Shown: piece after piece, positions 24,527 through 59,522 of the stretch
Position numbering within the stretch: position 1 is the stretch's first letter
How the letters are laid out: the number at the start of each line of letters is the position of its first letter
From: a virus
Reading direction: 5' to 3' (one strand)
DNA: 64,000 nucleotides
Virus record (IMG/VR): IMGVR_UViG_3300033998_000198
Coordinates: 67,935 to 131,934 of that record
The notes under the pieces: generated by a model
Databases searched by the model: none
Seen by the model: only the letters and a program-made list of their open reading frames with translations
Told to the model about the DNA's origin: nothing
Translations under genes and position numbers: made by a program

Positions 24527-24787
24527 GTGAGGTCAGTGATATATCCGATTGGGGTAAAAGAAAACAGTAGATACCGTGGTCCGATAGAAAGCATTAAAAC
24601 ACTTAGAACCAACGGTGATATTGAACAGAACATCAAACTGCTGTATAATAAATTTATGGAGCTTGAGGAATTAAATACCTATATTAAAACAGTCCTTGAT
24701 GATAACAACATATACAAGTCTCACAGGGATATCAAGGTAATAGACGGCAATACGAGCTCATTTATAAAGGAGGCTGACAACAGTTAA
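24527..24787 (+). CDS. Small structural-operon protein; last 4 codons and stop come from the inserted element
   Basis: GTG start after AGGA. Removing element 24774-26697 gives ...IKEAMVNG* overlapping the ATG at 26707. Confidence 0.6.
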   Translation: MRSVIYPIGVKENSRYRGPIESIKTLRTNGDIEQNIKLLYNKFMELEELNTYIKTVLDDNNIYKSHRDIKVIDGNTSSFIKEADNS

Positions 24788-24841
24788 GAAAAATTTATAA
24801 AATTTTATAAAAATCTATACACAATTTATAAAAAATCCCAC

Positions 24842-25009
24842 CTATTTGGTAGGATTGGTATATTTGATAATTAAATCTTGTAATGCTTCATCAAGCAATT
24901 TAGACTTAGGAATTTTAGTGTCTTTGCTTAACTTTTCAAATGCTTCATAGATTTTTATATCTACTGCGTTTGAGATGGGTTTTCTGTTTTTAAGACCTCG
25001 ATTATTCAT
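24842..25009 (-). CDS. Ribbon-helix-helix protein divergent from tnpB (55 aa)
   Basis: MNNRGLKNRKPISNAVDIKIYEAFEKLSKDTKIPKSKLLDEALQDLI has an RHH pattern; GGAGG RBS; homologous to 58621-58782. Confidence 0.75.
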   Translation of the reverse strand: MNNRGLKNRKPISNAVDIKIYEAFEKLSKDTKIPKSKLLDEALQDLIIKYTNPTK

Positions 25010-25094
25010 AAAATCACCTCCTAAAAAATATTGTACAACTACTTTTAAATACTTGCAACTACTTGTAGTTTGTAGTAAAATAATAATTAGGAGG

Positions 25095-25324
25095 TTCACT
25101 ATAGTTAATAAAAAGTTATAAAAAGTCATAAATTAATGAAATATGAAAAATCAGCATAATTCACTTAACGAATTATGTTGGTATGTACGGTGTCGTTACA
25201 TCGGAATTTAAGCCTTTGGAGAGTCATACCAAACGCAAGTAGGATTCCGAAAGCGGACTCTATGAATAAGGAAAAGAACATAAAAGTTATAATTTTATAA
25301 CTTTTTATAAGTTTCTTATAACGG
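25095..25324 (+). mobile_element. Nested 230-bp non-coding IS607-like mini-element B (left end + omegaRNA) in the RBS of tnpB
   Basis: GGAGG at 25090-25094, then left end TTCACTATAGTTAA..TTATAA, then omegaRNA scaffold ending TTTCTTATAACGG. Removal gives GGAGG-tgaaacga-ATG (25333). Confidence 0.8.
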
Positions 25325-25344
25325 TGAAACGAATGATTAGAACC
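25180..25344 (+). ncRNA. omegaRNA candidate B; predicted guide TGAAACGAATGATTAGAACC (tnpB start)
   Basis: Shares GGAATTTAAGCCTTTGGAG, GTAGG, ATGAATAAGGAA, AACATAAA and TAACGG blocks with the other copies; boundaries approximate. Confidence 0.65.
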
Positions 25345-26520
25345 TACAAAGTAATGCTTTTACCTAATAACAAACAAAGAATAAAGCTGTTTGAATGTGC
25401 TGGAGTTGCAAGATGGGCATACAACTGGGCATTAGAACAGCAACAGATTAACTATAAAAATGGTGGTAAATTTTTAGATGATAAAACTTTAAGAAAAAGG
25501 CTAACAGAACTTAAACAGACAGAAGAATACAAGTGGCTTAATGACTATTCAAATAACATTACAAAACAAGCAATAAAAGATGCCTGTATTTCTTATAAGA
25601 ACTTCTTTGAAGGTAGAGCCAAATTACCAAAGTTTAAATCTAAGAAAAGAAGTAAACAAAGTTTTTATCAAGATACTGATAAAATTGTTGTAACAGATAC
25701 TCATGTTAAATTAGAGAAACTAACTACTTCTAAAAAGAAAAACAAACAAAAATTAAATTGGATTAAATTATCTGAAATAGGCAGAATGCCGATAGGTGAA
25801 AACATAAAATACTCTAATCCACGCATAACATTTGATGGTCTAAATTGGTGGTTATCAATAGGAGTAGAAGAAGATATAAAGCAAGATAGTTCTAAGTATT
25901 CAGAAGGGATTGGTGTAGATTTAGGAGTAAAGGATTTAGCAGTAGTTAGCACAGGGCAAAAGTTTAAGAATATAAACAAGTCAAACAAAGTAAAGAAACT
26001 TGAAAAGATGCTTAGAAAACTACAAAGAAAACTATCTAAAAAATATGAGTTGAATAAAATTGAAACAGAAGGAGGTGAATACCGTTACAGAAAGACTAAA
26101 AATATTAAAAAGTTAGAATTCCTTGTTCTAAAGGTGCGAAGAAGGCTTAAAAACATAAGGCACAATTATATTCATCAGACAACTACATCTTTGGTGAGAA
26201 GCAAGCCTGAATATGTAGTAATGGAAAGTTTAAATACTTGCGGGATGTTGAAGAATAGAAAACTGTCAAAGGCAATACAAGAACAAGTTTTTCATGAGTT
26301 TAAAAGACAGATGGAATATAAGTGTGCATGGAATGGAATTAAGTTTATACTTGCAGATAGATTTTATCCTTCAAGCAAAACTTGCAGTAGATGTGGCAAT
26401 GTAAAGGATACCCTATCCTTATCAGAAAGAACCTTTATATGTGATAGATGTGGATATGAAATAGATAGGGACTTAAATGCAAGTATAAATCTTAAAAACT
26501 ATGGTAAATCAATAGCATAG
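25333..26520 (+). CDS. tnpB: TnpB RNA-guided endonuclease (IS607-associated type); ORF track extends to a junction GTG at 25324
   Basis: N-terminal HTH; RuvC-I GVDLG, RuvC-II VVMESL, zinc finger CSRCG/CDRCG, RuvC-III DRDLNA; catalytic D-E-D intact. Confidence 0.92.
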   Translation: MIRTYKVMLLPNNKQRIKLFECAGVARWAYNWALEQQQINYKNGGKFLDDKTLRKRLTELKQTEEYKWLNDYSNNITKQAIKDACISYKNFFEGRAKLPKFKSKKRSKQSFYQDTDKIVVTDTHVKLEKLTTSKKKNKQKLNWIKLSEIGRMPIGENIKYSNPRITFDGLNWWLSIGVEEDIKQDSSKYSEGIGVDLGVKDLAVVSTGQKFKNINKSNKVKKLEKMLRKLQRKLSKKYELNKIETEGGEYRYRKTKNIKKLEFLVLKVRRRLKNIRHNYIHQTTTSLVRSKPEYVVMESLNTCGMLKNRKLSKAIQEQVFHEFKRQMEYKCAWNGIKFILADRFYPSSKTCSRCGNVKDTLSLSERTFICDRCGYEIDRDLNASINLKNYGKSIA

Positions 26521-26529
26521 CACCAGACG

Positions 26530-26717
26530 CAACTATTGATATGTACCGATTCGTTAGTCGGGAATTTAAGCCTTTGGAGTGTCAAGCAAACATGAGTAGG
26601 TTTATCCGAAAGAGGACATGATGAACAAGGAAGGAAACATAAACTTTTATAAGGTTTAAGGAAAATCTTATAGAATTTTATAAGTTTTCTGTAACGGCAA
26701 TGGTCAATGGATAACGT
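26530..26717 (+). ncRNA. omegaRNA candidate A; predicted guide CAATGGTCAATGGATAACGT
   Basis: Directly 3' of tnpB and ending at the element right end (GTAACGG, 26697); conserved scaffold blocks. Confidence 0.7.
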
Positions 26718-27939
26718 ACCATCCTTTAGAAAACAAGAAGTAAAGTTCAGATCAACTGCATCCAGCGAACAATACAATCAGATGCAGGACAGTGCACTTT
26801 ATGATATCCTGAATCTTTTCAACAAAGCAAACAAGCTGGAAAGCGATCTTTTAGACACAAAAGACATCGTCTTTACTGAGAATAAGTATATGCAGTTGAA
26901 GATCCAATCCCTTGAAGCAAAGTTGGCCACGATGGCACAGCTATATAAAGATCTGACTACTGCCGGGAATAAATTAATGACGCTCAACGTATATCCGAAC
27001 CAGATGTATATAAACAGCTCATCCAGCGTTCCTGCATTTGTAGATACTGCCTGCATGGATGTAACGCTTCCGTTTGCCTCAAAAACAAGCAAGGTTCATG
27101 TATATGACGACGTATCCGACACTGTGTTTATTCCTGATTCATTGGTTGCTGAGAACAGTATAATAACACCGACCAAAGGAATCATCGAAATTACAGAGAA
27201 TGATATCATGAATGCGTTCAACGGAAACAACAGTTCTTACTGGAGAAAAAAAGTAATTACCGACAATACTGTAAACGAAGTAAACATGCAGATTGTCATA
27301 GGGCTTCCTGAAGACATTATATCAAACAGGGAAATCAATGCAGTTATCTTCTCTCCATTCCCATATGGCTCACTTGATCTGGTAAATATCGAATACAAAT
27401 TGTTCGGCGACTGGACCCAGATTCCTTCATTTAGCGAGCACTCCGAAGGAACGCTCGAATCATATTCCGATGTTTTCGGTAATATAAGTTATAAACCGAT
27501 TATTCCAGGAGTAGGTAACATTAAGTTCTGTTTCAATGACATCAGTGCATCTGAACTCAGAATCACTGTAAGACAAAGAAACTACACACAGGAGAATGGT
27601 AACCGGGTATTTTATCTTGGTGCCCGTGAAATTGAAATAGTCAATTATAAGTACAATAAAGATGTAGCTACATTCTATACAAAAGTTATATTCCCAGGCA
27701 ATCCTGTTAAGGTTGTGTGTGATATACAATCTATATTGAATAACCAGGGAGAAATCGGGAAGAATGTTGTACAGTATGAAATGTTCACACTGGACGACTA
27801 TGATCGGCCATCAAAGATAACAAAGGGATTTCCCTTTGAAATATCTAACGGTAAAATGCTTGTCAAGTGTGACATTTACAAAAATAATACTTCGCCGGCA
27901 TTAAATAAGATAAAAGTTATTTATAAAGAAAAAATATAG
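26707..27939 (+). CDS. Putative tail/baseplate protein (paralog family); SD displaced by element A
   Basis: SSEQYNQMQDSALYDI and VKCDIYK..TSPALNKIKV motifs. Confidence 0.6.
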   Translation: MDNVPSFRKQEVKFRSTASSEQYNQMQDSALYDILNLFNKANKLESDLLDTKDIVFTENKYMQLKIQSLEAKLATMAQLYKDLTTAGNKLMTLNVYPNQMYINSSSSVPAFVDTACMDVTLPFASKTSKVHVYDDVSDTVFIPDSLVAENSIITPTKGIIEITENDIMNAFNGNNSSYWRKKVITDNTVNEVNMQIVIGLPEDIISNREINAVIFSPFPYGSLDLVNIEYKLFGDWTQIPSFSEHSEGTLESYSDVFGNISYKPIIPGVGNIKFCFNDISASELRITVRQRNYTQENGNRVFYLGAREIEIVNYKYNKDVATFYTKVIFPGNPVKVVCDIQSILNNQGEIGKNVVQYEMFTLDDYDRPSKITKGFPFEISNGKMLVKCDIYKNNTSPALNKIKVIYKEKI

Positions 27940-27950
27940 GAGGTGCTCTT

Positions 27951-28895
27951 ATGAAAAAGACGCTATGTTTGCTGCTTGTTCTTGTTATTGCTTTTGTTTC
28001 AATACCTGTTTTTGCTGTGTATGACAATTCTAAAGTTTACACTGTGATTGGCAATGACAAGTATTATATGAATGGAACAAAGCTGATGAAGGACGGAAAA
28101 ATGGTCGTTAACTTCCAGGATCTTACCTACAGTTATGGAGGCATCGAAATCACCAAAGAGATGATGAAGACACTCCTTGTTACCGACCTTACTCATGACA
28201 AATGGAACGGACATGATATTATCTATGCTGTAGGATTGGTATTTGAACCTGATCAAGATATATTGAATGATTCATCGAAGTTCAAAGACCAGAAAATCAA
28301 GATAGGGTATCCGTACATGCTTGTTATGTCATATTGTATAGGAGGTCCGACCAAAGATATTTACTGGTACAAAGATAACTATTTAATGATGGAGGCCATA
28401 CTAAAGTATGATGCACTATGGGATGCTGCACACGATGTCATACTTGATGAGAGTAAAGACCCAACGGAAGATGAGAGTTATGATACGCTCTACAACTTCG
28501 CAGCAAGAATTGTACATCCAAGGATAATCATGAGCCAGCATTACTCACATAAGGCATACTTATTAGTACAGGATACAAAATCCGATGAGGTAAACGCAGA
28601 TCATATCAAACTATTTACATTCAATACTGACAGGACATTGAAGCCGGAATACAAGTTCACTCCGGAATTATTTGCAACATTCTGGTGGTTAAACGAGCAA
28701 GGGCAAAAGTACGGAGATTATGAAGTCAGATTAGATAGATTCTATCTTAAGGAAACCCAGAAAGACCATGTTGTAATATATAACTTTGGCGACGAAATAT
28801 CAATTGCACTTGATAACGATATTAGCATTCATACACAGCCAAGGTTGGCGGGTTTATACTGGCAGTATACTGAACAATTAGATCTTGACGAATAG
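27951..28895 (+). CDS. Secreted/exported protein with Sec signal peptide
   Basis: MKK-hydrophobic core-VFA|V signal peptide; AGGAGG RBS; last gene of the + operon. Confidence 0.65.
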   Translation: MKKTLCLLLVLVIAFVSIPVFAVYDNSKVYTVIGNDKYYMNGTKLMKDGKMVVNFQDLTYSYGGIEITKEMMKTLLVTDLTHDKWNGHDIIYAVGLVFEPDQDILNDSSKFKDQKIKIGYPYMLVMSYCIGGPTKDIYWYKDNYLMMEAILKYDALWDAAHDVILDESKDPTEDESYDTLYNFAARIVHPRIIMSQHYSHKAYLLVQDTKSDEVNADHIKLFTFNTDRTLKPEYKFTPELFATFWWLNEQGQKYGDYEVRLDRFYLKETQKDHVVIYNFGDEISIALDNDISIHTQPRLAGLYWQYTEQLDLDE

Positions 28896-28901
28896 AAAAT
28901 C

Positions 28902-28936
28902 AAATGGGTATTATACACAAAGTATAATACCCATTT
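28902..28936. terminator. Bidirectional intrinsic terminator
   Basis: Perfect 15-bp stem AAATGGGTATTATAC/GTATAATACCCATTT between convergent genes. Confidence 0.8.
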
Positions 28937-28940
28937 TGAA

Positions 28941-29135
28941 TTACTCGTCACCTTCGTCGGTATGATCTTTGGCAGCTCCCTGCATTTCACCGTCAACACC
29001 GAATCTCTTATTCAGTTCATCCTGTGAAATAGTGCCGTGATTGGCTGCTTCAGGAACAACCTGTCTACCATAAACTTTACCGGCCACAGCAGAACCGCTG
29101 AAGCCCATTGCTACATTTGAATTAACTATTGGCAT
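28941..29135 (-). CDS. Small hypothetical protein (64 aa)
   Basis: AGGAGG RBS before ATG at 29135. Confidence 0.55.
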   Translation of the reverse strand: MPIVNSNVAMGFSGSAVAGKVYGRQVVPEAANHGTISQDELNKRFGVDGEMQGAAKDHTDEGDE

Positions 29136-29165
29136 TGTTGCATCCCTCCTGGAATTGATTATCAC

Positions 29166-29438
29166 TTATTTAGTGATAGTGAAATATATAATGGCTTCAT
29201 AACCTTTCACCCGCACCTCAAGCGAATTTTCATCAAGCTGAACATACTCACATAATATTTCCTCTCTGCGTTTTATGGCCCATTTATGCATCTCTGTTCT
29301 CCATTTAACAACATCAAGGCCGCAGATATCCTTGTTTGTGTCAATTGCTGTTTTTAGGCTGTCATAATATTGAGCTTTACGCTCATCTCCGTTAATGAAT
29401 TCATCTAATTTTTCTTGAAATGGCCATAGAACTTTCAT
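29166..29438 (-). CDS. Hypothetical protein (90 aa)
   Basis: GGAGGAGG RBS before ATG at 29438; the longer ORF-track call overlaps the tRNA. Confidence 0.6.
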   Translation of the reverse strand: MKVLWPFQEKLDEFINGDERKAQYYDSLKTAIDTNKDICGLDVVKWRTEMHKWAIKRREEILCEYVQLDENSLEVRVKGYEAIIYFTITK

Positions 29439-29465
29439 ACAACCTCCTCCTAAGATTTGATAAAG

Positions 29466-29540
29466 TGGCAGGAGAGGCAGGATTCGAACCTGCAACCGAC
29501 GGTTTTGGAGACCGGCGTTCTACCACTGAACTACTCCCCT
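29466..29540 (-). tRNA. trnW: tRNA-Trp(CCA) with encoded CCA end; C27/U43 mismatch
   Basis: Cloverleaf AGGGGAG-TA-GTTC-AGTGGTA-GAAC-G-CCGGT-CTCCAAA-ACCGT-CGGTT-GCAGG-TTCGAAT-CCTGC-CTCTCCT-G-CCA. Confidence 0.95.
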
Positions 29541-29541
29541 A

Positions 29542-29945
29542 CGCAAGAAGGGCGAAACCATATTTGCTTGAGCTAAGGTTACCGCATTGATCTTTCAGAT
29601 CCATCGGCCTACCTTCCATTCCGGAAGGTCTTAGACATCAAGGCACAGCACGTTTACTTAGTTGCGGGGCCGTAACACCCGCTGGCTACTTGCGGCTACT
29701 CACTTACATCCGTACTTGTATCATATAATTTGACAGGATAGTGTTGGCAAGGCTGGTACTCCAAATCGTATAAATTTTCAGCAGCAGGATATATCATTTC
29801 ACCTTTCTGTCTAACCAGCAGTAAACACGTCCTCATCCCGTTCACCGGCGGGAAACCCGTTTTCCTTCTGTAGCTTTCTGCCTTAACACCAAAATTTCAG
29901 CCACCCTTCAGCCTGGGCCGGATAGGTTCCGGCGGACCTTGACAT
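29542..29945 (-). ncRNA. Candidate large structured RNA (GOLLD/ROOL-class-like) abutting tRNA-Trp
   Basis: About 400 nt with no ORF of 60 aa or more, GC-richer than flanks, many hairpins, and a long-range closing helix (29902-29909 with 29547-29554). Class assignment is from recalled similarity only. Confidence 0.55.
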
Positions 29946-29979
29946 AAAAGAGACGTGATAGAATAGATTTGTATATTTC

Positions 29980-30354
29980 TCACAACTCCTCAATCTCCCT
30001 GTAACACATTCCGACAACTCCAGGACTTTTATCGGAATCGGTTGGTTCGTAGTGTGCTTTGGGATGTTGTGGATACATCTATTCTATCATAGCGAAATTC
30101 GCAATGTCAATCAAATATTCCTTGTTGCCGGTTTCTTTGTATTTTTGAAGCCTTAACTCAAGGCTTGCAATTTCACCAACCAACTTATCACCAGAGTTAA
30201 TCCTTAATGGTCCATACTTATAGTATGACATAACCTTTGCTTTCTTGCTTGACACTCCCCATGACTAAAGTCGTTTGGATGAAGGCTAAGTTTCATGTAA
30301 ATCATCAAACTGTTCTGAATACTCAGTAGCTAATATGTCCTCTGTTCTTGCCAT
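29980..30354 (-). pseudogene. Phage hypothetical gene broken by a 48-bp IS605 hairpin and an in-frame TAG
   Basis: Removing 30249-30296 restores MARTEDILATEYSEQFDDLRKKAKVMSYYKYGP...; a later MIE*MYPQHPKAH continues in frame. Confidence 0.7.
30249..30296 (-). mobile_element. 48-bp IS200/IS605 right-end remnant
   Basis: Follows TTTAC; contains GACTTTAGTCATGGGGAG and ends TCAA. Confidence 0.65.
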
Positions 30355-30363
30355 AACCCACCT

Positions 30364-30813
30364 CTACATATCTATCTTGAGCTGAACAACCTCGACGCCG
30401 GCTTCTTCTAACATATCAAGAGATAATGTATCATCATACCCTTCTATGTACACAACCTTCTTTATGCCTGCATTAATCATCATCTTTGCACATATAACAC
30501 AAGGTTGGCATGTTACATACATGGTACTGCCATTTGTGCTTGCACCGAAGAATGCTGCTTGTGTGATTGCGTTCTGCTCTGCATGGACGGCTCGACATAA
30601 CTCGTGTCTCTCACCTGAAGGTATATTAAGCTGCTGTCTTAGACAACCAATATCTTCACAATGAGGTGAACCTGACGGAGCCCCGTTATATCCGGTTGAT
30701 ACGATATATTTATCTTTTACCAGCAAAGCTCCCACCTGTCTGCGAATGCACGTCGACCGTGTTTGTATTAGTTTGGCTATGGACAAAAAATATTCGTCCC
30801 ATGATGGCCTCAT
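30364..30813 (-). CDS. dCMP deaminase (ComEB-like)
   Basis: [24 protein letters not shown] and PCVIC zinc motifs; GGAGG RBS before 30813. Confidence 0.92.
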
Positions 30814-30943
30814 TTCTTTTGCCTCCTTAGAATTTCCTGCACTGTTATGCAGTCCCCTCAATCTCTATGTAGACCGGGAGAGGTGAGAGTCCTCTTATAA
30901 CTTTTTATTAACTATAGTGAACCCCCATATCATCTTTTTATGC

Positions 30944-31528
30944 CTATAATTTCTTAATACGATGTCCTGTTGAGTTGTTTTTTAATGCCTGGAATTCTTC
31001 ATTACTAAGTTCGCCAAGACCACGAGTATCCTTTGCTGCTTCTGCGGCAGCTTTTTGTGAATTTCTGTAACTTGCATTTGTTACATTCTGTGCTCCGCCA
31101 CTTATCTGAGCTGTCTTATGCTCCATAATCTTTCTGGCTGTATCCATGTCGCCTTTGGCATCATTGAATATCGTCTGTGCTATATTCTGTGCTTCTTTCT
31201 TTGAACCAGCTTCTGCAAATCCCGTATACCCTATTTCATCTGCTATATCCTGCATCTTAAACATGTCTGCTTTTGACATTATAGACTTTGTACTTGTCTT
31301 TGCAGTAGCTTCTGCACCTTTAGCGACGCTTGCTGCCGCAGCTTTGCCTTCGGCCGCTGCAATTTTCTCAGCACCTTTTGCTGCTTCTTTAACGCCTTGT
31401 TTGGCACCTTTCTTAAACAAGCCTTTAGCGGCACCAACACCAAGGAAGATAGCACCCGCTGCGAGAGCTACGTTAAATAACCCGTTCTCGCCTGCATCTT
31501 TGTTTGACTCAATTTGACTATCAGCCAT
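30944..31528 (-). CDS. Ala/Lys-rich protein with N-terminal hydrophobic segment
   Basis: LFNVALAAGAIFLGVGAA followed by AAK/AAE repeats; GGAGG RBS. Confidence 0.6.
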   Translation of the reverse strand: MADSQIESNKDAGENGLFNVALAAGAIFLGVGAAKGLFKKGAKQGVKEAAKGAEKIAAAEGKAAAASVAKGAEATAKTSTKSIMSKADMFKMQDIADEIGYTGFAEAGSKKEAQNIAQTIFNDAKGDMDTARKIMEHKTAQISGGAQNVTNASYRNSQKAAAEAAKDTRGLGELSNEEFQALKNNSTGHRIKKL

Positions 31529-32022
31529 TATAATACCTCCTTTACTATCTGCTTGAACTGATCAAGCGTAATAACTGTGTGTGGAACCTTGAATAATTTA
31601 ATTCCCTTGGTTCTTAATATTTCTTCCTTAAGTTTATCACATTTCTGGAGATATTGGAATTCCTCCTCAGTCTGGAAATATTGCTTTGTATCGTGTTGCT
31701 GGCCTTCTACTTCAATTGCGAAATGCGGTTTATTTCCGTATACAAATACGTCAAGTTGCATCGGATAACCTTTTGGAGATGGCAGCCATGAATAATATCC
31801 GCCAAATATAACAGGTCGATCCGGAAACAACTCTCTTACAAACATTTGTATTCGAAATTCCAGTTTACTGCGTTGAGGTATCGGTGTACGTTTTGGCTTC
31901 CTATAAACAGAAGCCGGCGAGTGTTCCTTGCAATATCCCGGTTTCTTTGTAGTATATTCAACAACCTTCCCGCACTTCTTGCATGTTGTAGTCTTGATCC
32001 TTATTTCCTTCTTCTTGGCCAT
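31528..32022 (-). CDS. Zn-finger + Vsr/DUF559-like PD-(D/E)XK endonuclease
   Basis: CKKC...C..H; SKLE, QLDVFV, AIEVEGQQH and D..KEEIL motifs; GGAGG RBS before 32022. Confidence 0.7.
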   Translation of the reverse strand: MAKKKEIRIKTTTCKKCGKVVEYTTKKPGYCKEHSPASVYRKPKRTPIPQRSKLEFRIQMFVRELFPDRPVIFGGYYSWLPSPKGYPMQLDVFVYGNKPHFAIEVEGQQHDTKQYFQTEEEFQYLQKCDKLKEEILRTKGIKLFKVPHTVITLDQFKQIVKEVL

Positions 32023-32848: not shown

Positions 32849-32852
32849 ATTA

Positions 32853-41758: not shown

Positions 41759-41954
41759 TGCTCTCAGGAATATCTTGAATGAACCTCTCCAACCTACGCT
41801 TCGCTTAGAGGTTGGAGTTTCTTAGCACCATGTATTATTACCTTCGCAGATATGTTGTTACATATCTTCGTTGCAAACAACGGAAGTATAATAATACACT
41901 AACTAAGCAACTACCTTTCGGCAGGGTGGATTCACACCATCTACTACTTCTTGC
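41759..41954 (-). ncRNA. omegaRNA candidate of the IS605 TnpB; predicted guide TCAAGATATTCCTGAGAGCA
   Basis: Structured non-coding stretch between the tnpB stop and the right end. Confidence 0.6.
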
Positions 41955-43197
41955 CTAAGCAATACGTAGATACTTTATTTCTCTTGTCTTTCCTAAGTAC
42001 CTAATATCATTATATTTATACTTAGATAATATATTTTTGCTTCCATGTATATCTCTATGCTCTTTATATCCACATTTACATATATAATTCCTCGTAGAAG
42101 TTTTCTTCCTTCTACCACAAACAGGACATGTTTGTGTAGTATATCCTTCGTTGATTTTAGTTATATTTATTCCTTCGGCTTTTAATTTGTATTCTAAATA
42201 TTTATATAATTTACCAAACTGCCATTGACTTAATTTTTGATTGGTATTTTTATTCATTTTCTTTTTAGTGTTTCTTTGTACTCCATCAATATCACCTATT
42301 ACCACTTCATTGACTTTATTTTCGATACACCAATCAACATATTGCTTAGTTGTTTTATGAAGTATATCAGTTAATTGATTGTCAGATTTAGATAGTATAT
42401 ATTGTTTTGCTTTATTGTACTTTTTACATTTTCTGCTACCTTTCTTACATTTGCTCATTTTCCTTTGTAATTCTGCTATCTTTTTATTTCTTAGTCTTTT
42501 TATACTTCTTGCCTTACGTCCAGTTATTATAATCGCATTACCGTTTTCACAATATGAACTAATTGTGTGTATTTCTCCTACGTCTATCCCTGCTATGTTT
42601 TTATGATTATTTATACTTTCAATTAATCCATCTTCATATGTTAATGATAATTTTAATCCTCTATCATATATTAATTCAATTTCTTTTATTTTACCAATTT
42701 GTAGTTCTTTAACATGGACTATAATAGGCTGTTGTCTCTTACCATTCCATATACCCATACTTAACTCAATTTTGCCATTATCATACACCTTGAAACCATC
42801 TTTAGCCCATTTTGTATTATAATTCTTTTTCTTTTTATAAGGATATCTATTGTCTAATCCTTGTTGCTTTGCTTTATGTGCTGCATCTCTTGCAAATAAG
42901 TATTTATGGCATACTGCTTGTATTGATTGAGAATGCAATGGATATTTGTTTTTTAATGCTTTTTGTAATTCTGTTTTATTAATCCATTTACCATCATTAG
43001 CAAGAGAGTATTGTTTAGCAATGTCTAAACAATCATTCCATATTTGTGCTGATATACGGTTACATTCGTAAAGTCTATTTAGATTGGTTTTAGATGTTTT
43101 GAATGTAGTTTTTAAGCAACGTATCACGTTCTCACCTCACTTTTCAGCAATTCATCTCCCACCTATAGAGGATGGGAGAATTCTTGCTGATTCTCCG
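41779..43197 (-). mobile_element. IS200/IS605 (tnpB-only, IS1341-like) element
   Basis: TTTAA target then left-end hairpin (about 43140-43190); right-end hairpin CTCCAACC..GGTTGGAG ending GGTTCAT; AT-rich. Confidence 0.8.
41955..43127 (-). CDS. tnpB: TnpB, rearranged-RuvC type
   Basis: GIDVG; VVIGD at the canonical RuvC-II position with E in INEGYTTQTC; HRDIHG; zinc finger. Confidence 0.88.
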   Translation of the reverse strand: MIRCLKTTFKTSKTNLNRLYECNRISAQIWNDCLDIAKQYSLANDGKWINKTELQKALKNKYPLHSQSIQAVCHKYLFARDAAHKAKQQGLDNRYPYKKKKNYNTKWAKDGFKVYDNGKIELSMGIWNGKRQQPIIVHVKELQIGKIKEIELIYDRGLKLSLTYEDGLIESINNHKNIAGIDVGEIHTISSYCENGNAIIITGRKARSIKRLRNKKIAELQRKMSKCKKGSRKCKKYNKAKQYILSKSDNQLTDILHKTTKQYVDWCIENKVNEVVIGDIDGVQRNTKKKMNKNTNQKLSQWQFGKLYKYLEYKLKAEGINITKINEGYTTQTCPVCGRRKKTSTRNYICKCGYKEHRDIHGSKNILSKYKYNDIRYLGKTREIKYLRIA

Positions 43198-43208
43198 TTA
43201 AATTGTCT

Positions 43209-43517: not shown

Positions 43518-43670
43518 GTTTGTAACCGTTACGCAAAACTTATAAAACTTTACAAAAACATTGTAAAAGTTTATGTTTGCTTCCTCGTTCATAGTGTCCG
43601 ACCTCGGCTAACCTACTATCGTTTGATGTGACACTCCAGAGGCTTGAATTCCCGTGTAACTCACGGTACA
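43506..43670 (-). ncRNA. omegaRNA candidate C; predicted guide TTACAAACATGAACAAAAAA (hup start)
   Basis: GGAATTCAAGCCTCTGGAG, GTAGG, ATGAACGAGGAA and AACATAAA blocks. Confidence 0.65.
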
Positions 43671-44072
43671 CCTTAATGCCAATCGTTCTGGTGATTCGCA
43701 TTAAGTAACGGTTTCCTCCTTTCTCAATTTATTCATCAAAAATTAAGTGAACCTCCTACGACTTCAGTCGTAGGCTTCTTCCTGCTTCTTCGTCCTCGTA
43801 ACCTACTAACTCCACAGGCGTTAATTCCGATAGTTCCTACCGTACTTCTGTCCTTACTCATGACTAAAGTCACGAGAATGCGGACATTAACACTTCAATT
43901 TTTGCTTGGTTTTCGCTATTCATCACGGTGCTAAAGACCCTCTCCATTCTATTGGATGCTTATACCACTTTCGCAGTACCCTGGATTCACATTAGAACAC
44001 ACCGACCACAACGCTATGTGGATTTTTACATAATTTTATAATGTTTTATAAAAATCCTTTAACTGTTGTTAC
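43526..44072 (-). mobile_element. Non-coding IS607-like element C (547 bp), inserted after GGAGG of hup
   Basis: GGAGG at 44073-44077; left end GTAACAACAGTTAA; right end TTTTATAAGTTTTGCGTAACGG. Removal gives AAGGAGG-ttacaaac-ATG. Confidence 0.8.
43747..43885 (-). mobile_element. 139-bp IS605-type mini-element (LE hairpin + omegaRNA-like + RE) nested in element C
   Basis: TTAAT target (43886-43890); CTCGTGACTTTAGTCATGAG left hairpin; GGAATTAACGCCTGTGGAG; CCTACGACTGAAGTCGTAGG right hairpin ending TTCAC. Confidence 0.7.
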
Positions 44073-44081
44073 CCTCCTTGT

Positions 44082-51290: not shown

Positions 51291-51298
51291 GATTTCAC

Positions 51299-51610: not shown

Positions 51611-51659
51611 GACGAATCAATACTTGTCAGTTCAATTCTCATAGCATTTAGCATTTACC

Positions 51660-53035: not shown

Positions 53036-53466
53036 TCGCTTTCTCTCCTTCTACTGAAATAATCTATACCGCTCCTTATATCGTCATCACTTATGGTATC
53101 TGAGATATATGGACGCAAGACATTCAACAGATATTCTGTTGCCTGTTTGTCATTCTTTATATGTTTTGCTACCAGTTCTATCTCATAACTTTGCCAGGGA
53201 TAAAACGTAGGAATAAACACAAACACTTCATTGTTTGCTATAATTCCTTCACTGATGACCACTCCGTTACTATCAGTCTGTTCGATGCACTCTCCAATCT
53301 CATCCAGAGAGACATCATTGTCTTCCAGAATTTCACGTTTTTCTTCAGATGTTATTCCTTCAGGGAACGGGTCAAGCCCTATGAGCTTAGGCATGGCATC
53401 AAGGTTCAGGTTTTCCCATTTCAACTGATACCCATATCCTATAACACCCCAAGTTGTTTTCGACAT
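53032..53466 (-). CDS. Hypothetical acidic protein
   Basis: GGAGG RBS; coupled to the downstream gene. Confidence 0.55.
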   Translation of the reverse strand: MSKTTWGVIGYGYQLKWENLNLDAMPKLIGLDPFPEGITSEEKREILEDNDVSLDEIGECIEQTDSNGVVISEGIIANNEVFVFIPTFYPWQSYEIELVAKHIKNDKQATEYLLNVLRPYISDTISDDDIRSGIDYFSRRRESE

Positions 53467-53477
53467 GATTATACCTC

Positions 53478-55379
53478 CTAATTGTTTAATATATTCATCA
53501 GTTCGGATTCACTGATAACTTTTATTCCTTTAGCCTTAGCTGCATTTGTTTTGGTTGCACCAACATTCTGGCCGACAACAAGGTAATCTGTATTTCTTGA
53601 AACAGAGTTTGATACATTGTGGCCTTTATTCCTTATGTAATTTTCAAACCATGCTCTCGGCTTACTCAGTGTTCCAGTAATAACAAATGTATAACTCTTT
53701 GTCCAACCTGATGTTCCGTCCTGTGGCAAGGTTGTGTTTGACGACCTTTTTACAGGTGAATCCTTTGGAGTTACATACTGAAACAGATATAGCCATAGTG
53801 CAGCATATTTCATGATATTCTGAACAATGGTGTTCCCTATACCATTGATCTGTTTAATCTGTACACAACCTGCCTTGATATCATTTATGAATTCGGCGAA
53901 CGAACCAACTGTTTCAGCTATATCTCTTGATACGCTACGACCTACTCCGGGTACACCAGTGGCATACAAGAATCTGTGTAGTTCAGTAGTTCTTGCCCTT
54001 TGTATCCTGTTGTAGAGAGTTGTTGCAGACCTCTTTGCAAATCCGGGAAGCTGTTGGATTGCGGTTACATCAAGCGTGAATATATCCCAGGGGTATTTAA
54101 CAAACCCTGAGTCTATCAGCTTTTTCGCTGTTTCATCAGACAATCCTTCGATATCCAGTGCATCTTTCTTTGCAAGATGAACAATGCTCCCTATTAATTT
54201 TGATTTGCAGATAGGATTATTACAGAAGGCTTGGTCATTGACTACATCGATATCCCCTCCACAGTCCGGACATTTCTTTGGTTCCGGAAAGCTGTCAACT
54301 GGTGATACAATTGTTTCAGCCTTTGTTATTGCAGGAATTACGTCATTTGCTTTAATGACAAACACCTTTTGTCCCTTTGCTTTTACTCCAAGAGCATTCA
54401 TGATTCCCTTGTTGTGTAGTGTTACTCTTGATATTTCAGAGCCACATACCCTTACCGGTTGTATTTCCGCAACCGGAGTCAGTTTACCTGTTCTTCCAAC
54501 CTGCCAAGTAACATCGTTTATGATAGTCCACTTCCCTTCGGAAGGAAACTTCCATGCAAATGCGTTCTTTGGGTGATGTCCGGTTACTCCGAATACAGCC
54601 TGAGCATTTGGAATGTTTGATTTTATAACAAGACCGTCTATGTCATACGGCAGTCTGTCACGCTTGTCTTTGTAGCTGATAATAAATCTTACTGCATCAT
54701 CTACTGTCTTTCCGTTTTCATCAGAGAATACACCATAAGGAACGACGGACCATCCCTGATTCTTCAAGGTTATAAGCTGCTGCTCCTCTGTTGCTGATGA
54801 TCCTAATATGTTATATACGTGATAATTCAAATACTTTATATAATTCGGATCTGCTTTGCGGAGGATTCCAGGAATGGCATTCCTTGTATTTTCAAATGTC
54901 TTTTCGCCGTTAGCTTGTCTTTCTGTATTCAGTTTCTCAAGGTTCTCTCTGGTTATAAATACTTCCATCCTTACGGCAGTATTATACTGTGAGAATTGTA
55001 TCCCTTGTATCTGTGATACTCCTGGAGTCACTATCTCTCCTATAAATCCATTTCCTCTTGTCACAAACTTATCATTATAGGCTACGATAGTCATTCCGTC
55101 TATCTTTGGCTCTACAACAACAGGCCATAACTCTTTAACTTTCTCTCTGAGTTCTGTTTCGTCATTTACTTTGTCAAGCGACAATACCTGTGCAATATGT
55201 GTAAATGTAGCACCACCATCTGTATCGTCAGGAACGTAGTCGTATTCTCCTCCCATTGCGATATATTGCTGTTTCAATGCGTCATATTCTGCGTCACTGA
55301 TTTCAGGAGCTGCCTTCTTATAGTAAAGGTCGTCGTGGTAGTCAATTAACTCCTTCAGCTTCCTTAATTCTTCAGTCAC
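53478..55379 (-). CDS. ligA: NAD-dependent DNA ligase (probable GTG start at 55379)
   Basis: EISDAEYD, EPKIDG, DIDGLVIK, QVGRTGKLTP, C4 zinc finger, HhH repeats and BRCT FVITG. Confidence 0.95.
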   Translation of the reverse strand: MTEELRKLKELIDYHDDLYYKKAAPEISDAEYDALKQQYIAMGGEYDYVPDDTDGGATFTHIAQVLSLDKVNDETELREKVKELWPVVVEPKIDGMTIVAYNDKFVTRGNGFIGEIVTPGVSQIQGIQFSQYNTAVRMEVFITRENLEKLNTERQANGEKTFENTRNAIPGILRKADPNYIKYLNYHVYNILGSSATEEQQLITLKNQGWSVVPYGVFSDENGKTVDDAVRFIISYKDKRDRLPYDIDGLVIKSNIPNAQAVFGVTGHHPKNAFAWKFPSEGKWTIINDVTWQVGRTGKLTPVAEIQPVRVCGSEISRVTLHNKGIMNALGVKAKGQKVFVIKANDVIPAITKAETIVSPVDSFPEPKKCPDCGGDIDVVNDQAFCNNPICKSKLIGSIVHLAKKDALDIEGLSDETAKKLIDSGFVKYPWDIFTLDVTAIQQLPGFAKRSATTLYNRIQRARTTELHRFLYATGVPGVGRSVSRDIAETVGSFAEFINDIKAGCVQIKQINGIGNTIVQNIMKYAALWLYLFQYVTPKDSPVKRSSNTTLPQDGTSGWTKSYTFVITGTLSKPRAWFENYIRNKGHNVSNSVSRNTDYLVVGQNVGATKTNAAKAKGIKVISESELMNILNN

Positions 55380-55380
55380 T

Positions 55381-56619
55381 TTAACACCCTCCTTTAATAT
55401 CCAGTCTTTTATATAGCAAGTCCTCATAGACTTTTCGTTCTGCGGCCGGGATTTTCTCAATCAGTGCTGATACAGCCCTTACTGCTTTAAGCCTTTCACG
55501 TATAACGATTTGCTCATAAGCCTTTGTTTCCCGTTCAATAACTACAGACATTGCAGCTTTTGCATTGTCTGTGATATACTGCCTTATGGCATTTCCGTCA
55601 AAGTTTTTCCATAAGCATACATCTGCCGCATCCATATTGTTCTCTGCAATCATAATGAGGACATTAAAGTCTTTTTCAAATAGTTGCGGCAATACTTTAA
55701 GCATATTGTCAATTCCTGCTTTGTCTCCGTCCAAGAATAAGATGATATTTCTTGTCATCTTCCGAATGGTATCCATTTGATGTTCTGTTAACGCAGTACC
55801 AAGACATCCTACAGTATTTGTAAGACCTGCCTGATGCATTGAGATAACATCTATATAACCTTCAACTACTATTGCAAAATTATTTTTTCTGATAGTCTGA
55901 TGTGCCCAAGGATATCCATACAATGTCTCTCCTTTAATAAACACTCCTTTTAGTGGGTCACGGTCATCAGTTCTGTTTTTATCATTGATATACTTTGGCC
56001 CGGTATCTTTCGGGTCAAACTGACGATACCCCATACCAATACACTTGGCATATTTGATATCTTTTGATTCCAATATAGGGAATGCAATTCTTCCGGATAT
56101 TCCCCCCATGTCTGTTCTGACTTTATATTCATCTACCGGAACAAGGCCAAGTCTGAATTGATTAATGGTTGCCTGTGTTAATTTTCTCTGGTTCATAAGA
56201 TAATGGAGAGCTCCTGGTGACTGCTGTAGGTTTCTCCAGTACCTTCGTGAATGTTCATCCATTCTGTCTTTATAAGCCTCATGTTCCTTGTTGGGCGGAA
56301 CAATTTCGTAAGCTATTCCAGCTTCATCTGCTCCCATCTTACACGCCTCCTTGAACTCAAGGTTTTCTTTCTTCATCAGAAAATCAATGACATCTCCTCC
56401 TTCTCCGTCAGTAAAACAGTGCCACTTATTTGTCTTTGGCCACACAACAAAGGAAGGAGTGTCAAAATTATGTTTGTGAAACGGACAATAACCTTTATAG
56501 ACATCCCCGGATTTTCTTAGCCTTATCTCGTCCTGATAATATTTCTCGATGATGTCCCATATCTTTACTGATGATTTGATTTCATCTATGGGTATCCCAT
56601 TGCCTGCCACTTCCACCAC
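55381..56619 (-). CDS. dnaG: DnaG-type primase
   Basis: CPFH zinc-binding domain, GRIAFPI, KYIN, VVEGYIDV and LDGDKAG TOPRIM motifs. Confidence 0.92.
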   Translation of the reverse strand: MVEVAGNGIPIDEIKSSVKIWDIIEKYYQDEIRLRKSGDVYKGYCPFHKHNFDTPSFVVWPKTNKWHCFTDGEGGDVIDFLMKKENLEFKEACKMGADEAGIAYEIVPPNKEHEAYKDRMDEHSRRYWRNLQQSPGALHYLMNQRKLTQATINQFRLGLVPVDEYKVRTDMGGISGRIAFPILESKDIKYAKCIGMGYRQFDPKDTGPKYINDKNRTDDRDPLKGVFIKGETLYGYPWAHQTIRKNNFAIVVEGYIDVISMHQAGLTNTVGCLGTALTEHQMDTIRKMTRNIILFLDGDKAGIDNMLKVLPQLFEKDFNVLIMIAENNMDAADVCLWKNFDGNAIRQYITDNAKAAMSVVIERETKAYEQIVIRERLKAVRAVSALIEKIPAAERKVYEDLLYKRLDIKGGC

Positions 56620-56627
56620 TCCCTGAT

Positions 56628-56828
56628 TTAATCTTCTAACAAATCACGCTCCAACAGCATATCTTTTACTATAAGTTCAATGTTCTCAATCAATGCACCA
56701 GAATAATCAAGAAGCGTCAATGCAATGTCGTCTATATCTGACATATCTGCATTATGTGCATATTTCATTATGATTTTCTTAAACAATGCTAATAACAGTT
56801 CTTGCTGACTTGCTGATTCCAAACCCAT
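56628..56828 (-). CDS. Small hypothetical protein
   Basis: GGAGG RBS. Confidence 0.55.
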   Translation of the reverse strand: MGLESASQQELLLALFKKIIMKYAHNADMSDIDDIALTLLDYSGALIENIELIVKDMLLERDLLED

Positions 56829-56896
56829 AATATCACCTCCTATAATAAAATTGCCTCCCCCTCCCGATAGGGAGAAAAAGGCAATCTTGTTACGGT

Positions 56897-57220
56897 TTAC
56901 TCTTTGTTGTCTTCAGGAAACAACGACAACTGCCCTGGGATCTGGTCGTCCATTATGCTCGGATGTGTCTTAGCCTCATTTACAAATTCGTCTGTGAGCT
57001 GAGGTCCTTGACAAGGCAGATATTCTACAGTTGTTTCAGGTACACCTTCTGATTCAACATAAGTAATCGGGAATTCTGTCGACGGATCTTGGTGAGCCGC
57101 AGCCAGACATTCCAGTATGAACAATTTCATGTCCTGCTCTGAAGCAACCTCTCCCTGCTGAATCATTTCAGCAGTAAAATCGCCCATATTGAGCTTCAAC
57201 AATTCGTTAATCGGTTTCAT
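56897..57220 (-). CDS. Acidic hypothetical protein; SD displaced by element D
   Basis: ATG lies 8 nt from the element right end; contains a PGQLSLF clamp-binding-like motif. Confidence 0.55.
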   Translation of the reverse strand: MKPINELLKLNMGDFTAEMIQQGEVASEQDMKLFILECLAAAHQDPSTEFPITYVESEGVPETTVEYLPCQGPQLTDEFVNEAKTHPSIMDDQIPGQLSLFPEDNKE

Positions 57221-57370
57221 TAGATTACCCGTTACAGAAAACTTATAAAAAGTTATAAATTAACTTTTATGTTTCCTTCCTTATTCATCCTGCCCGGTTT
57301 CGGAAACCTACTCCCGTTTGATATAGCAGTCCAAAGGCTTAACTTCCCGAATAACGTATCGGTACTACAC
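57209..57370 (-). ncRNA. omegaRNA candidate D; predicted guide GTAATCTAATGAAACCGATT
   Basis: GGAAGTTAAGCCTTTGGA, GTAGG, ATGAATAAGGAA and AACATAAA blocks 3' of tnpB. Confidence 0.7.
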
Positions 57371-57387
57371 GCATAAACGTTTTGTGT

Positions 57388-58509
57388 TTATGCTGTTACT
57401 GGATATTTCATCAGGTTAATACTTGCGTTTAAATCCCTGTCATGTAATGTTCCACATACTGGACATACCCATTCTCTTGTTGAAAGAGATAATTTTTCAA
57501 GTATGTGCCCACATTCAGAGCACATCTTTGACGATGGATAAAACCTGTCTGCTATTATCAACCTGATACCGTTCCATTCGCATTTATACTCCATCTGTCT
57601 GCGGAATTCTTTCAATGTCTGTTCCTGCACCGCTTTTGCAAGTTTGTGGTTTTTAATCATCCCGCTGACATTCAAATCTTCCATTACAACGTATTCCGGC
57701 TTGGTTTTCACCAGTTTTGTTGTTATTTGATGGATATAATTTGTGCGAATGTTTTTAAGCCTTTGATATGTCTTACGAATAAGGCGCTCCAGTTTTATAA
57801 TATTCTTTGTTTTTCTGTAACGGTTTCCCTCCTTTCCTTTTTCATATTTTTTCGATACTTTCCTTTGGATCCTTTTTAGTTTCTTTTCCAACTTCTTAGC
57901 CTTTTTGCTTTTATTTATGTTTTTGAATTTTTCACCTGTACTCACTACAGCTAAATCCTTTACCCCTAAGTCTATTCCTATAGGCTCTGAATGTGAGGTA
58001 CCGTCTTGTACAGGGTGAAATTCAATACATACTGTTAACCACCAGTTTAAACCGTCAAATTTAATTCTTGGATTCAAGTATTTACCATCAGGTAAAGGCT
58101 CTGCTACTTTTACCCAACCTATTTTCTCTAATACAACTTTGCCGTTTTTGTACTTTAATTTATCTTCTCTCTGATAAAAAGAAGGTTTACTGTGTTTTTT
58201 GCTTTTGAATTTTGGTTTGTTAGAAACCCCTTTAAAGAACCTTTGATATGCTAAACACGCATCTTTTACTGCCTGCTTTGGTATTTGTGCTGATACATCA
58301 TTTAGCCATTTATACTGTTCTGTTTTCTTTAATTGTGTTATCTCTTTTCTTAATTCTCCGTCTGGTATGAACTTCCCACCATTTTTATAATTTTCCTCTT
58401 GCCTTGCCAAAGTCCAATTGTATGCCCATCTTGCTACTCCTGCACACTCAAATAGCTTTGTTTTTTGCTTGTTGTTCGGCTTTAACTGTATTTTATAGGT
58501 TTTTATCAT
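57388..58509 (-). CDS. tnpB: TnpB RNA-guided endonuclease (IS607-associated type)
   Basis: GIDLG, VVMEDL, CSECG/CPVCG and DRDLNA; catalytic D-E-D intact; clearly homologous to 25333-26520. Confidence 0.92.
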   Translation of the reverse strand: MIKTYKIQLKPNNKQKTKLFECAGVARWAYNWTLARQEENYKNGGKFIPDGELRKEITQLKKTEQYKWLNDVSAQIPKQAVKDACLAYQRFFKGVSNKPKFKSKKHSKPSFYQREDKLKYKNGKVVLEKIGWVKVAEPLPDGKYLNPRIKFDGLNWWLTVCIEFHPVQDGTSHSEPIGIDLGVKDLAVVSTGEKFKNINKSKKAKKLEKKLKRIQRKVSKKYEKGKEGNRYRKTKNIIKLERLIRKTYQRLKNIRTNYIHQITTKLVKTKPEYVVMEDLNVSGMIKNHKLAKAVQEQTLKEFRRQMEYKCEWNGIRLIIADRFYPSSKMCSECGHILEKLSLSTREWVCPVCGTLHDRDLNASINLMKYPVTA

Positions 58510-58620
58510 TCTATCACCACCTTATATAATCTTCTATTATATAATCTTCTATAAGTATTGTATCATAAAACTTATTGTGTTACAATAAGTTTATATAATT
58601 TTATATAAGGAGTGATAAAT

Positions 58621-58782
58621 ATGACTGATTTAAAAAACAGGGTTCGCATTGGTACATCGGTAGATATACAAACTTATAATGCTTTAAAAAAACTATCCGC
58701 ACAAACTCAAATACCTATGAGTCGGTTACTTGATAAAGCCATTGAGCTTGTTTTAAAAGAGTATGGAAAGCCTGTTAAATAG
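58621..58782 (+). CDS. Ribbon-helix-helix protein divergent from tnpB (53 aa; below ORF-track cutoff)
   Basis: AAGGAG RBS; MTDLKNRVRIGTSVDIQTYNALKKLSAQTQIPMSRLLDKAIELVL. Confidence 0.75.
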   Translation: MTDLKNRVRIGTSVDIQTYNALKKLSAQTQIPMSRLLDKAIELVLKEYGKPVK

Positions 58783-58811
58783 CAGGCTTTATAACTTTTT
58801 ATAAGTTTTGT

Positions 58812-59522
58812 TTAACTGTTGCTCCACCTCCCTATTTTCTGTTTGTACCCACATTCTTTGTTCTCACAAAGTCTGTATTCAGTTCCTTCCTGCATGGTTG
58901 TTACTGTTTCAGCACCACACATTGCACATGGATGCTCAAATTCAAAGAATGACAGTGGATCTTCCCATGCTGCAAACCATTTTAAGAGCTTGCTGGTTGA
59001 CAGGCATTTCGGACAAAATCCTTCAGTGTTTTCGTCGGCAGCAAGTTGAACTACCGGATAACTGTCATCTCCTTCAGTGTTTTTATAAACATAGTTATTG
59101 ATATCTATTCCTGTTCCCGTCTTTACAACTTCCAAATCACCATCAAGAACACGGAATGCAATGATCCCGTCTACCGACACAATGGCTGATTGTCCGCAGT
59201 CAGGACATCTGAAATAACTTGCCTGCTTGGTTTGTCCGGTTTCGTTTAGCTGCACCTCAACACGTTTTCCTCCTTCGACAAGGGTAAGAGTTTCACGCTT
59301 CTTGTCAAAGTTCGGAAGTCTTGGTCTTACAACTTCTCTTTCATTATACTCAGGCTGGTCAAGCCTTGGTGTCGGAGACGGTTTAACAGTCTTGTCCTCA
59401 ACAGGAACTCTTACTTGTATAAAATCCTCCAACATCAAGGCTTGTTTACCAGGTATATTAAAAGGCTTAATAGAACTTGCATATCCTATCAATCCTTCTG
59501 TTGTATAGATTTCAAACTTCAT
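58812..59522 (-). CDS. Multi-zinc-ribbon hypothetical protein; last codons come from element D
   Basis: CPDC, CPKC, CAMC and CENKEC motifs. Confidence 0.55.
   Translation of the reverse strand: MKFEIYTTEGLIGYASSIKPFNIPGKQALMLEDFIQVRVPVEDKTVKPSPTPRLDQPEYNEREVVRPRLPNFDKKRETLTLVEGGKRVEVQLNETGQTKQASYFRCPDCGQSAIVSVDGIIAFRVLDGDLEVVKTGTGIDINNYVYKNTEGDDSYPVVQLAADENTEGFCPKCLSTSKLLKWFAAWEDPLSFFEFEHPCAMCGAETVTTMQEGTEYRLCENKECGYKQKIGRWSNS

Follow-up and report, generated by a model that had tools for sequence, protein, structure and literature searches.

We analysed the final 64 kb of a 131,934-bp virus record from IMG/VR (IMGVR_UViG_3300033998_000198; CheckV completeness ~61%), a stretch hereafter called the window, and found in this large phage four elements, A to D, which share both ends and a guide-RNA scaffold and which each separate a Shine-Dalgarno (SD) sequence from the start codon that it serves. 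Two of them encode an intact TnpB nuclease.

Four elements with common ends

Element A (24774-26697, plus strand, 1924 nt) consists of a left end, an antisense gene for an Arc-like ribbon-helix-helix (RHH) protein, the nested element B, tnpB, the scaffold of a guide RNA (reRNA), and a right end closing in ..GTAACGG. Its left flank, GGAGG at 24769-24773 (plus strand), is the SD of a virion structural gene starting at 26707 and the presumed target and target-adjacent motif (TAM). The RHH gene (24842-25009, minus strand; 55 aa; Pfam RHH_3, E 3.9e-12) has an SD of its own, GGAGGTGAT, and diverges from tnpB (25333-26520, plus strand), which is intact, encodes 395 aa, and retains the RuvC D/E/D residues. 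The RAGATH-18 core of the reRNA follows at 26571-26632 (plus strand; Rfam match, 53.5 bits), and the guide, as predicted from the family architecture (PMC11061315), would occupy 26698-26717 (plus strand), thus taking in the spacer and the start of the virion structural gene (its ATG, 26707, with the codons next to it). Element B (25095-25324, plus strand, 230 nt) is gene-less and consists of a left end, an reRNA scaffold, and a right end; it lies downstream of AGGAGG, the SD of tnpB in A, and upstream of the tnpB start codon, ATG.

The other two elements lie on the minus strand. Element C (43526-44072, 547 nt) is decayed, with a left end, a nested guide-RNA fragment of another family, a tnpB remnant, and a RAGATH-18 scaffold (43581-43642); its right end, ..GCGTAACGG, is followed 8 nt further by the ATG of an HU-like gene. 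Element D (57229-58826, 1598 nt) comprises a left end, an antisense RHH gene (58612-58782, plus strand; divergent from tnpB; RHH_3, E 2.2e-15), an intact tnpB (57388-58509, minus strand; 373 aa; motifs GIDLG, VMEDLN, HDRDLN, and CxxC..CxxC), an reRNA scaffold (57277-57337), and a right end in ..GTAACGG. The GGAGG flanks of C (44073-44077) and D (58827-58831), both on the minus strand, were read directly from the sequence. Thus, A and D carry an intact tnpB and B and C carry no tnpB gene.

Read in the direction of each element, the left flank passes into the left end as AAGGAGG followed by CTGACAACAGTTAA in A, TAGGAGG followed by TTCACTATAGTTAA in B, AAGGAGG followed by GTAACAACAGTTAA in C, and AGGGAGG followed by TGGAGCAACAGTTAA in D. 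Alignment of the ends shows 5-6 weakly conserved bases, then (C/T)AACAGTTAA, and next the TTATAA-type repeats, whereas the right ends read TTATAAGTTT..(G/A)TAACGG, i.e., ..GTAACGG or ..ATAACGG. Subterminal repeats of the form TTATAA(A/G)..TTATAA occur at both ends of each of the four elements, and the left-end model also matches the right ends on the opposite strand. D has one extra nucleotide between GG and AACAG compared with the other three, and its boundary could instead fall 3 nt further in, after GGTGG, where the frame is likewise kept. Rfam matches to RAGATH-18 were obtained in 4/4 elements (53.5-69.3 bits against a gathering score of 44.9), ~60-125 nt before the right end in each case. 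The distance from the right end to the ATG is 9 nt for A and 8 nt for B, C, and D, and element and flanking genes share their orientation at all four sites. The first-pass annotation of this DNA had described four elements with shared ends at these positions, each beginning directly after GGAGG and each ending 8-9 nt before an ATG; sequence reading, end alignment, and the RAGATH-18 matches bear out the description in full.

Relationship to the IS607 family

TnpB of A matches the structure of the IS607 TnpB of ISFba1 (8iaz_A) with an E value of 1.1e-68, the RuvC D/E/D residues being aligned (GVDLG, MESLN, DRDLN), and the window TnpBs have Pfam TnpB domains and a zinc ribbon. IS607 TnpBs are guided by RAGATH-18-derived reRNAs, and their measured TAMs are 5'-AGGAG in 18 of 22 strains and 5'-GAGGG in the other 4/22, with cleavage by ISFba1 requiring every TAM base (Ren et al., Cell Res 2024; PMC11061315). 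We surveyed 49 viral and 80 bacterial loci (numbered with the prefix L) that contain relatives of tnpB. The closest to tnpB of A, at 81-90% identity, are from Caloramator, Thermotalea, and Alkalithermobacter. In five loci (L010, L043, L070, L114, and L064, the last from Staphylococcus phage VL10), a MerR-plus-resolvase transposase, TnpA, is encoded between a homologous left end and tnpB, the right end being homologous as well; L070 is one of the closest relatives. The assignment to an IS607-like TnpB family, made in the first-pass annotation from the sequence alone, is thereby upheld, and since relatives with the same ends carry TnpA while the record does not, A-D are non-autonomous members.

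We consider it likely that A-D are non-autonomous ISFba1-type IS607 elements, with TnpB, a RAGATH-18-derived guide RNA, TTATAA-type subterminal repeats, a GG crossover, SD targeting, and homing-like persistence. They resemble ISFba1-type IS607 elements (PMC11061315; PDB 8IAZ) in the TnpB fold, the catalytic residues, the RAGATH-18 scaffold after tnpB, the G-rich TAM (AGGAG or GAGGG) beside the left end, and the right end in ..CGG; they differ in that the window copies lack tnpA, that A and D have an antisense RHH gene, and that the host is a large phage. With the CboIStron and other Clostridium IS607 elements (Zedaveinyte et al., bioRxiv 10.1101/2023.11.20.567912), they share the serine-recombinase family, the GG crossover, and scarless excision; cleavage of the donor joint by TnpB, which restores the element, would be a further likeness. 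The target and TAM of the CboIStron, in contrast, is TGGG, and a group I intron removes it from mRNA. No group I intron or other known RNA was found by Rfam scans in the 5' parts of A-D; in A and D, the RHH gene takes up this space. With no intron, the split ribosome-binding site (RBS) does not undergo repair at the RNA level.

Insertion at the Shine-Dalgarno core

IS607 exchange takes place at GG and produces no duplication (PMC6188088; bioRxiv 10.1101/2023.11.20.567912). When the flanks are joined with the GG counted once, a canonical RBS reappears at all four sites. At A the reconstruction reads ..AAAGGAGGCAATGGTCAATGGATAA, and the upstream open reading frame (ORF) ends in ..AMVNG*, overlapping the next ATG (ATGgaTAA); at D it reads ..GGGAGGGTAATCTAATG, with stop and start overlapping as TAATG. 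The claim in the first-pass annotation that excision would rebuild the RBS in all four could thus be reproduced, as could the overlaps in A and D on which it based restored translational coupling. The flanks fit the published TAM, with GGGAG+G in D and AGGAG+G in the other three elements. A target-site duplication was considered and rejected because, both in the window and in most relatives, the 5 nt that follow the left GG do not match those that follow the right GG.

The same placement recurs in the survey. All 97 distinct right ends close in ..(T/C)AACGG, with complete divergence beyond, and an ORF of at least 50 codons starts 3-16 nt (mode 7) past the right end in 70/97, the background being 15% for random positions and 18% for positions that follow any GG. 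The conserved AACAG, not the flank itself, served as the anchor for aligning the left flanks; across the 52 distinct sites (48 relatives and the 4 window copies), the logo at positions -5 to -1 is G40 G40 A43 G52 G52, and GGAGG itself is found in 29. Near-identical copies at differing sites (L125/L128/L080/L077, L093/L102, and L105/L106, the four-copy case being from Velocimicrobium porci) share the 5-6 nt after the GG and not the flank before it. Because such copies diverge exactly upstream of the GG, the element begins directly after it; for the same reason, the variable 5-6 nt were ruled out as flank.

Taken together, these data show that the family inserts in the orientation of the gene at the final GG of an SD-like GGAGG, so that the element parts the SD from the start codon. 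They also show that the putative guide, taken as the first ~16-20 nt past the right end, runs from the spacer across the ATG into the first codons. Two proposals of the first-pass annotation, that GGAGG is the target or TAM and that the guides span start codons, are supported by the 29/52 flanks, the divergence upstream of the GG, the AGGAG or GAGGG TAMs of relatives (PMC11061315), and the 70/97 right ends near an ORF start.

An alternative account would have the transposase require GG alone, the RBS pattern reflecting survival of intergenic insertions and the intergenic GGs lying mostly in SDs, with no specificity for GGAGG. In its favour, (G)GG suffices for the Helicobacter pylori IS607 (PMC6188088), 88% of the window is coding, and flanks such as AAAGG, ATAGG, and AATGG exist. 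However, the window holds 93 GGAGG among ~5000 GG on both strands, and only 28 of 545 intergenic GGs (5%) end a GGAGG, compared with 4/4 insertions, giving p ~0.05 per insertion and ~1e-4 for A, C, and D jointly, an estimate that already assumes that intergenic insertions alone survive. Moreover, the logo fixes A at -3 (43/52) and G at -4 and -5 (40/52 each), GGAGG is present at 56% of target sites but, by a crude count, ahead of only ~12% of flanking genes, insertions fall at the second GG of GGAGG and not at the first, and ISFba1 cleavage depends on every TAM base. We therefore regard a GG-only preference as very unlikely. The related idea that tnpB genes avoid GGAGG in their own RBSs was unsupported (4/52 tnpB compared with 18/144 flanking genes; Fisher p 0.45), and the enrichment of GGTGA in tnpB RBSs is probably due to shared ancestry.

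An empty allele of A in a sister metagenome

Four runs (X1-X4) of one subsurface-metagenome study contain this phage. In X3, a contig of 116,325 nt at depth 20.3 matches 24500-24771 and then resumes at 26696, lacking exactly 1924 nt at site A; only GGC is common to both sides, leaving a 3-nt ambiguity, and the junction is the predicted empty allele. A 3-nt overlap is too short to produce a de Bruijn assembly artefact at this junction. The first-pass annotation had tied its reading beforehand to the position at which empty alleles break, and A breaks where it had predicted. Insertion and loss are thus shown to be precise and without target duplication. Read depth over the interior of A is 68-73 against 78 in the flanks in X1 and ~2.5 against 20.3 in X3, from which it follows that occupied and empty alleles coexist at differing frequencies in sister samples. 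Given that 12 bases differ over 15 kb, the X3 contig represents a close but different strain. For C, no empty joint was reported from the comparison of sequencing runs, which left D outside the compared stretch, and two viral_contigs scans and a megablast search against cultured phages yielded no empty sites via relatives of the flanking phage genes.

The strain difference bears on the possibility that the four copies are inert relics, fixed long ago and no longer cut or copied, the polymorphism at A being merely an old difference between strains. The decay of C, the position of B between tnpB of A and its SD, and the lack of tnpA in the record would all suit this scenario. Yet tnpB of A and D are full length with their catalytic residues present, all four guide-RNA scaffolds (4/4) score above the Rfam threshold, and the absence of A is base-exact, with GGC alone shared, as a recombinase or homing would give, so that we consider relics quite improbable.

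Consequences for the downstream genes

The first-pass annotation had also proposed that this placement leaves coding sequences almost intact. This wording hides a cost, the loss of the SD from the downstream gene: the median pairing energy with the anti-SD falls from -10.25 kcal/mol at reconstructed empty sites to -3.3 kcal/mol at occupied ones (n = 44). SD-like pairing of -6 kcal/mol or stronger is kept at only 5/44 occupied sites, ~90% being without a replacement, and the right ends have in common neither an in-frame start nor an ORF for coupling, an in-frame ATG within the scaffold being present in C only. That ATG (ATGAACGAGGAAG; 43521-43592, minus strand), with GAGG ~10 nt ahead, would extend the HU-like protein N-terminally by 24 aa and is a possible substitute start for the HU-like gene only. 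Long-range RNA pairing between left and right ends, which would place the SD beside the ATG, was considered by eye only and seems doubtful, as the pairs would be almost all A-U and the repeats are conserved for protein binding.

The gene after A matches phrog_19670 (virion structural; E 2e-76), with phrog_19683 upstream in the same operon, and the occupied allele dominates X1 even though A precedes this structural gene. Viable cultured Staphylococcus phages likewise carry an element ahead of a gene whose product, according to the S25-3 annotation, is a putative structural protein. Among bacteria, the 20 downstream genes are mostly dispensable (spore coat kinase, FlgL, histidine kinases, glycosidases, GalT). 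One is clearly essential, the replicative helicase gene dnaB in Caloramator proteoclasticus (L068; element 3840-5182), and it keeps GGTGAGGA before its ATG, built from the right-end GG and the flank.

Since insertion strips the SD, one may ask whether the elements are kept as regulators of downstream phage genes, either as a removable block between SD and start or through a repressor formed by the RHH protein or by TnpB with its guide, and are not mere selfish passengers. The dominance of the occupied A allele ahead of a structural gene would fit such a role, and domesticated TnpB relatives with the function of RNA-guided repressors are known (TldR; bioRxiv 10.1101/2023.11.30.569447). Against this, the nuclease residues are intact, the same placement is found ahead of unrelated genes in ~70 genomes, and there is no sign of one site conserved across phages; a regulatory role therefore seems highly improbable to us.

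The RHH gene and the nested element B

In A and D, the antisense RHH_3 gene of 55-56 aa takes the place occupied by tnpA in relatives; homologues are present in three viral loci (L022, L038, and L048) and in 0/80 bacterial loci. Repeats lie in the rhh-tnpB intergenic regions: two copies of CAACTACTT in A and two of AGAAGATTATATAA in D. In IS605-family TnpB elements, the promoter is repressed by Arc proteins (bioRxiv 10.64898/2026.09.24.754181), and by analogy the divergent rhh/tnpB promoters are probably the target of repression by the RHH protein, a role consistent with the divergent arrangement and the intergenic repeats. The likeness extends to the small RHH gene divergent from tnpB and to the repeats in the shared promoter region; the difference is that Arc repressors were described for the IS605 family, whereas in A and D the RHH gene sits in an IS607-type element, at the tnpA position, and in the surveyed sample only in viral copies.

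Element B parts tnpB of A from its SD and probably lowers its translation. A Caloramator relative (L066) has an uninterrupted tnpB leader, GAGG-TGAAACGA-ATG, with the same spacer as tnpB of A. Part of B (25134-25324) has ~1900-fold depth in X1 and X3, compared with 20-78-fold for the phage, and the extra copies run upstream into an apparent tnpB end (..DRDINAAIN). The high depth and this continuation suggest that B arose by deletion from a full-length element of very high abundance, which is perhaps multicopy in the host. Elsewhere, a right-end-like sequence (..TTTTCAGTAACGG) lies directly ahead of the tnpB start (2416-2492 in L013; 2411-2435 in L016 and L032), in L013 as a ~75-nt mini-element of left and right end after GGGGG. 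Insertions into the tnpB leader, like that of B in A, may recur.

Related elements in Staphylococcus and other phages

A related tnpB (53-58% identity) is encoded by Enterocloster phage CB457P1 and by ~98 Staphylococcus Twort-like phages. Sister Staphylococcus phages that are 99.6-99.8% identical supply two empty sites, in both of which the break falls at the GG of the purine run that precedes the ATG of the next gene: the SEP1 site, empty in phiIPLA-C1C, joins ..AGAAAAGG to ATGAAGAATAAATATG, and the PSU6/S25-3 site, empty in phage K, joins ..GATGAAGAGG to TGTATATTTAATG. The elements of the Twort-like phages (Twort, SEP1, PSU6, S25-3, and Remus; GenBank) resemble A-D in their TnpB (53-54% identical), the lack of a transposase, the right end ..GACAACGG, the use of a purine-run GG, 8-14 nt ahead of an ATG, as the insertion point, and the empty alleles in sister phages. 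They differ in keeping a MerR-like stub of tnpA instead of an RHH gene and in that the left-end tip copies the right side of the target at three sites.

At these three sites, the right side of the target is repeated in the first 9-11 nt of the left end: PSU6 (L056, 1460-1475 and 3083-3100; GGTGTATATTTAA at both sides), SEP1 (L055, 1383-1396 and 2783-2797), and VL10 (L064, 50-62). The repeated tip also rebuilds the last codons and the stop of the upstream gene, a duplication-like arrangement contrary to what is expected of IS607 and absent from Twort and the window.

Other features of the window

A fifth TnpB element, IS605/IS1341-like, lies at 41780-43205 (minus strand), directly after the HU-like gene. 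Its tnpB (41955-43127, 390 aa) has the Pfam OrfB_IS605 and Cas12f1-like TNB domains, and RAGATH-18 is absent. The left end has a hairpin (GGAGAAT..ATTCTCC), and the guide-RNA region closes in ..GGAGAGGTTCAT near 41780; this stretch reaches ~550-fold depth in the metagenome runs. The interior of C (43757-44020, minus strand) resembles the guide-RNA region of this neighbouring, unrelated element and was ruled out as part of the A/D family. It ends in ..GTCGTAGGAGGTTCACT, like the right end of the IS605-like neighbour, an abundant contig links 43784 to 41822, and the interior folds somewhat better than shuffles (z -2.35); it looks like a guide-RNA-only fragment of an IS605-like family nested in C. 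A tRNA gene (29469-29540, minus strand; Rfam, 69.6 bits) lies within the phage structural region.

Discussion

The elements described here are new members of a family reported in 2024, and the TAM that the first-pass annotation proposed was already published for that family. What is specific to the window is the presence of four copies in one phage, the nesting of one in the tnpB RBS of another, the RHH gene in place of tnpA, and the polymorphic empty allele. The term Shine-Dalgarno has 0 occurrences in PMC11061315, where the TAM is linked neither to the SD nor to start codons, and 'ribosome' has 0 occurrences in PMC13565253; the searchable literature yielded no paper that combines TnpB, AGGAG, and the ribosome-binding site, and the position before start codons is undiscussed there.

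How would such elements enter and persist in a phage? First entry would have needed TnpA in trans, probably from host copies, the nearest tnpB genes being those of Caloramator and allied thermophilic Clostridia, some of which have tnpA. Once in the phage, the elements may maintain and propagate themselves in the manner of homing endonuclease genes: guided TnpB would cleave any co-infecting genome bearing the empty allele, GGAGG plus guide sequence, and repair would copy the element in, a process termed transposon non-restorative homing in a 2026 review (PMC13565253). B was presumably aimed at the RBS of tnpB in A, and the polymorphism of A would supply a substrate for homing. The parallel with the free-standing homing endonuclease genes of T4-like phages is one of analogy, not of membership: in both, a nuclease gene sits between phage genes, cuts the allele that lacks it, and is copied by repair. 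In T4-like phages, however, the protein itself recognises the target and the genes lie between complete gene units, whereas A-D use a guide RNA plus TAM and split an RBS.

Several observations weigh against the interpretation of A-D as homing IS607 elements with an SD-core TAM. Residues N121 and N122 of ISFba1, which read TAM positions -4 and -5, align ambiguously in TnpB A, so that its exact TAM may differ by one base, and two one-base registers, AGGAG+G and GGAGG, would fit the flanks. No match to a serine recombinase or resolvase (PF00239) was found in the whole 132-kb record, although, the record being only ~61% complete, a tnpA may lie elsewhere in the phage. TnpB A may be poorly translated, as B lies between tnpB and its SD. 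The polymorphism of A fits gain or loss between the two samples alike, and cleavage, guide RNA, and homing of A-D are predictions from sequence. A bolder extension would see this IS607 branch as a dedicated RBS-homing element, whose insertion is a reversible translational block or whose right end supports SD-independent initiation, the RHH-bearing, transposase-less phage form being an RNA-guided gene drive whose members attack each other's tnpB RBS, as B in A. We consider this extension unlikely.

With family and TAM already known, the gain lies in biology, not in kind. A TAM within the SD core explains why the elements occur at gene starts and co-oriented with the gene, and it predicts a cost of insertion, the loss of the SD. 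As the TAM of this widespread TnpB family coincides with the SD core, insertion is conceivable at any gene of a Firmicute, or of a Firmicute phage, that is preceded by an SD, and each such site adjoins a unique guide. Finally, a phage population with occupied and empty alleles provides a natural setting for the question of whether TnpB acts as a gene drive between co-infecting phages.

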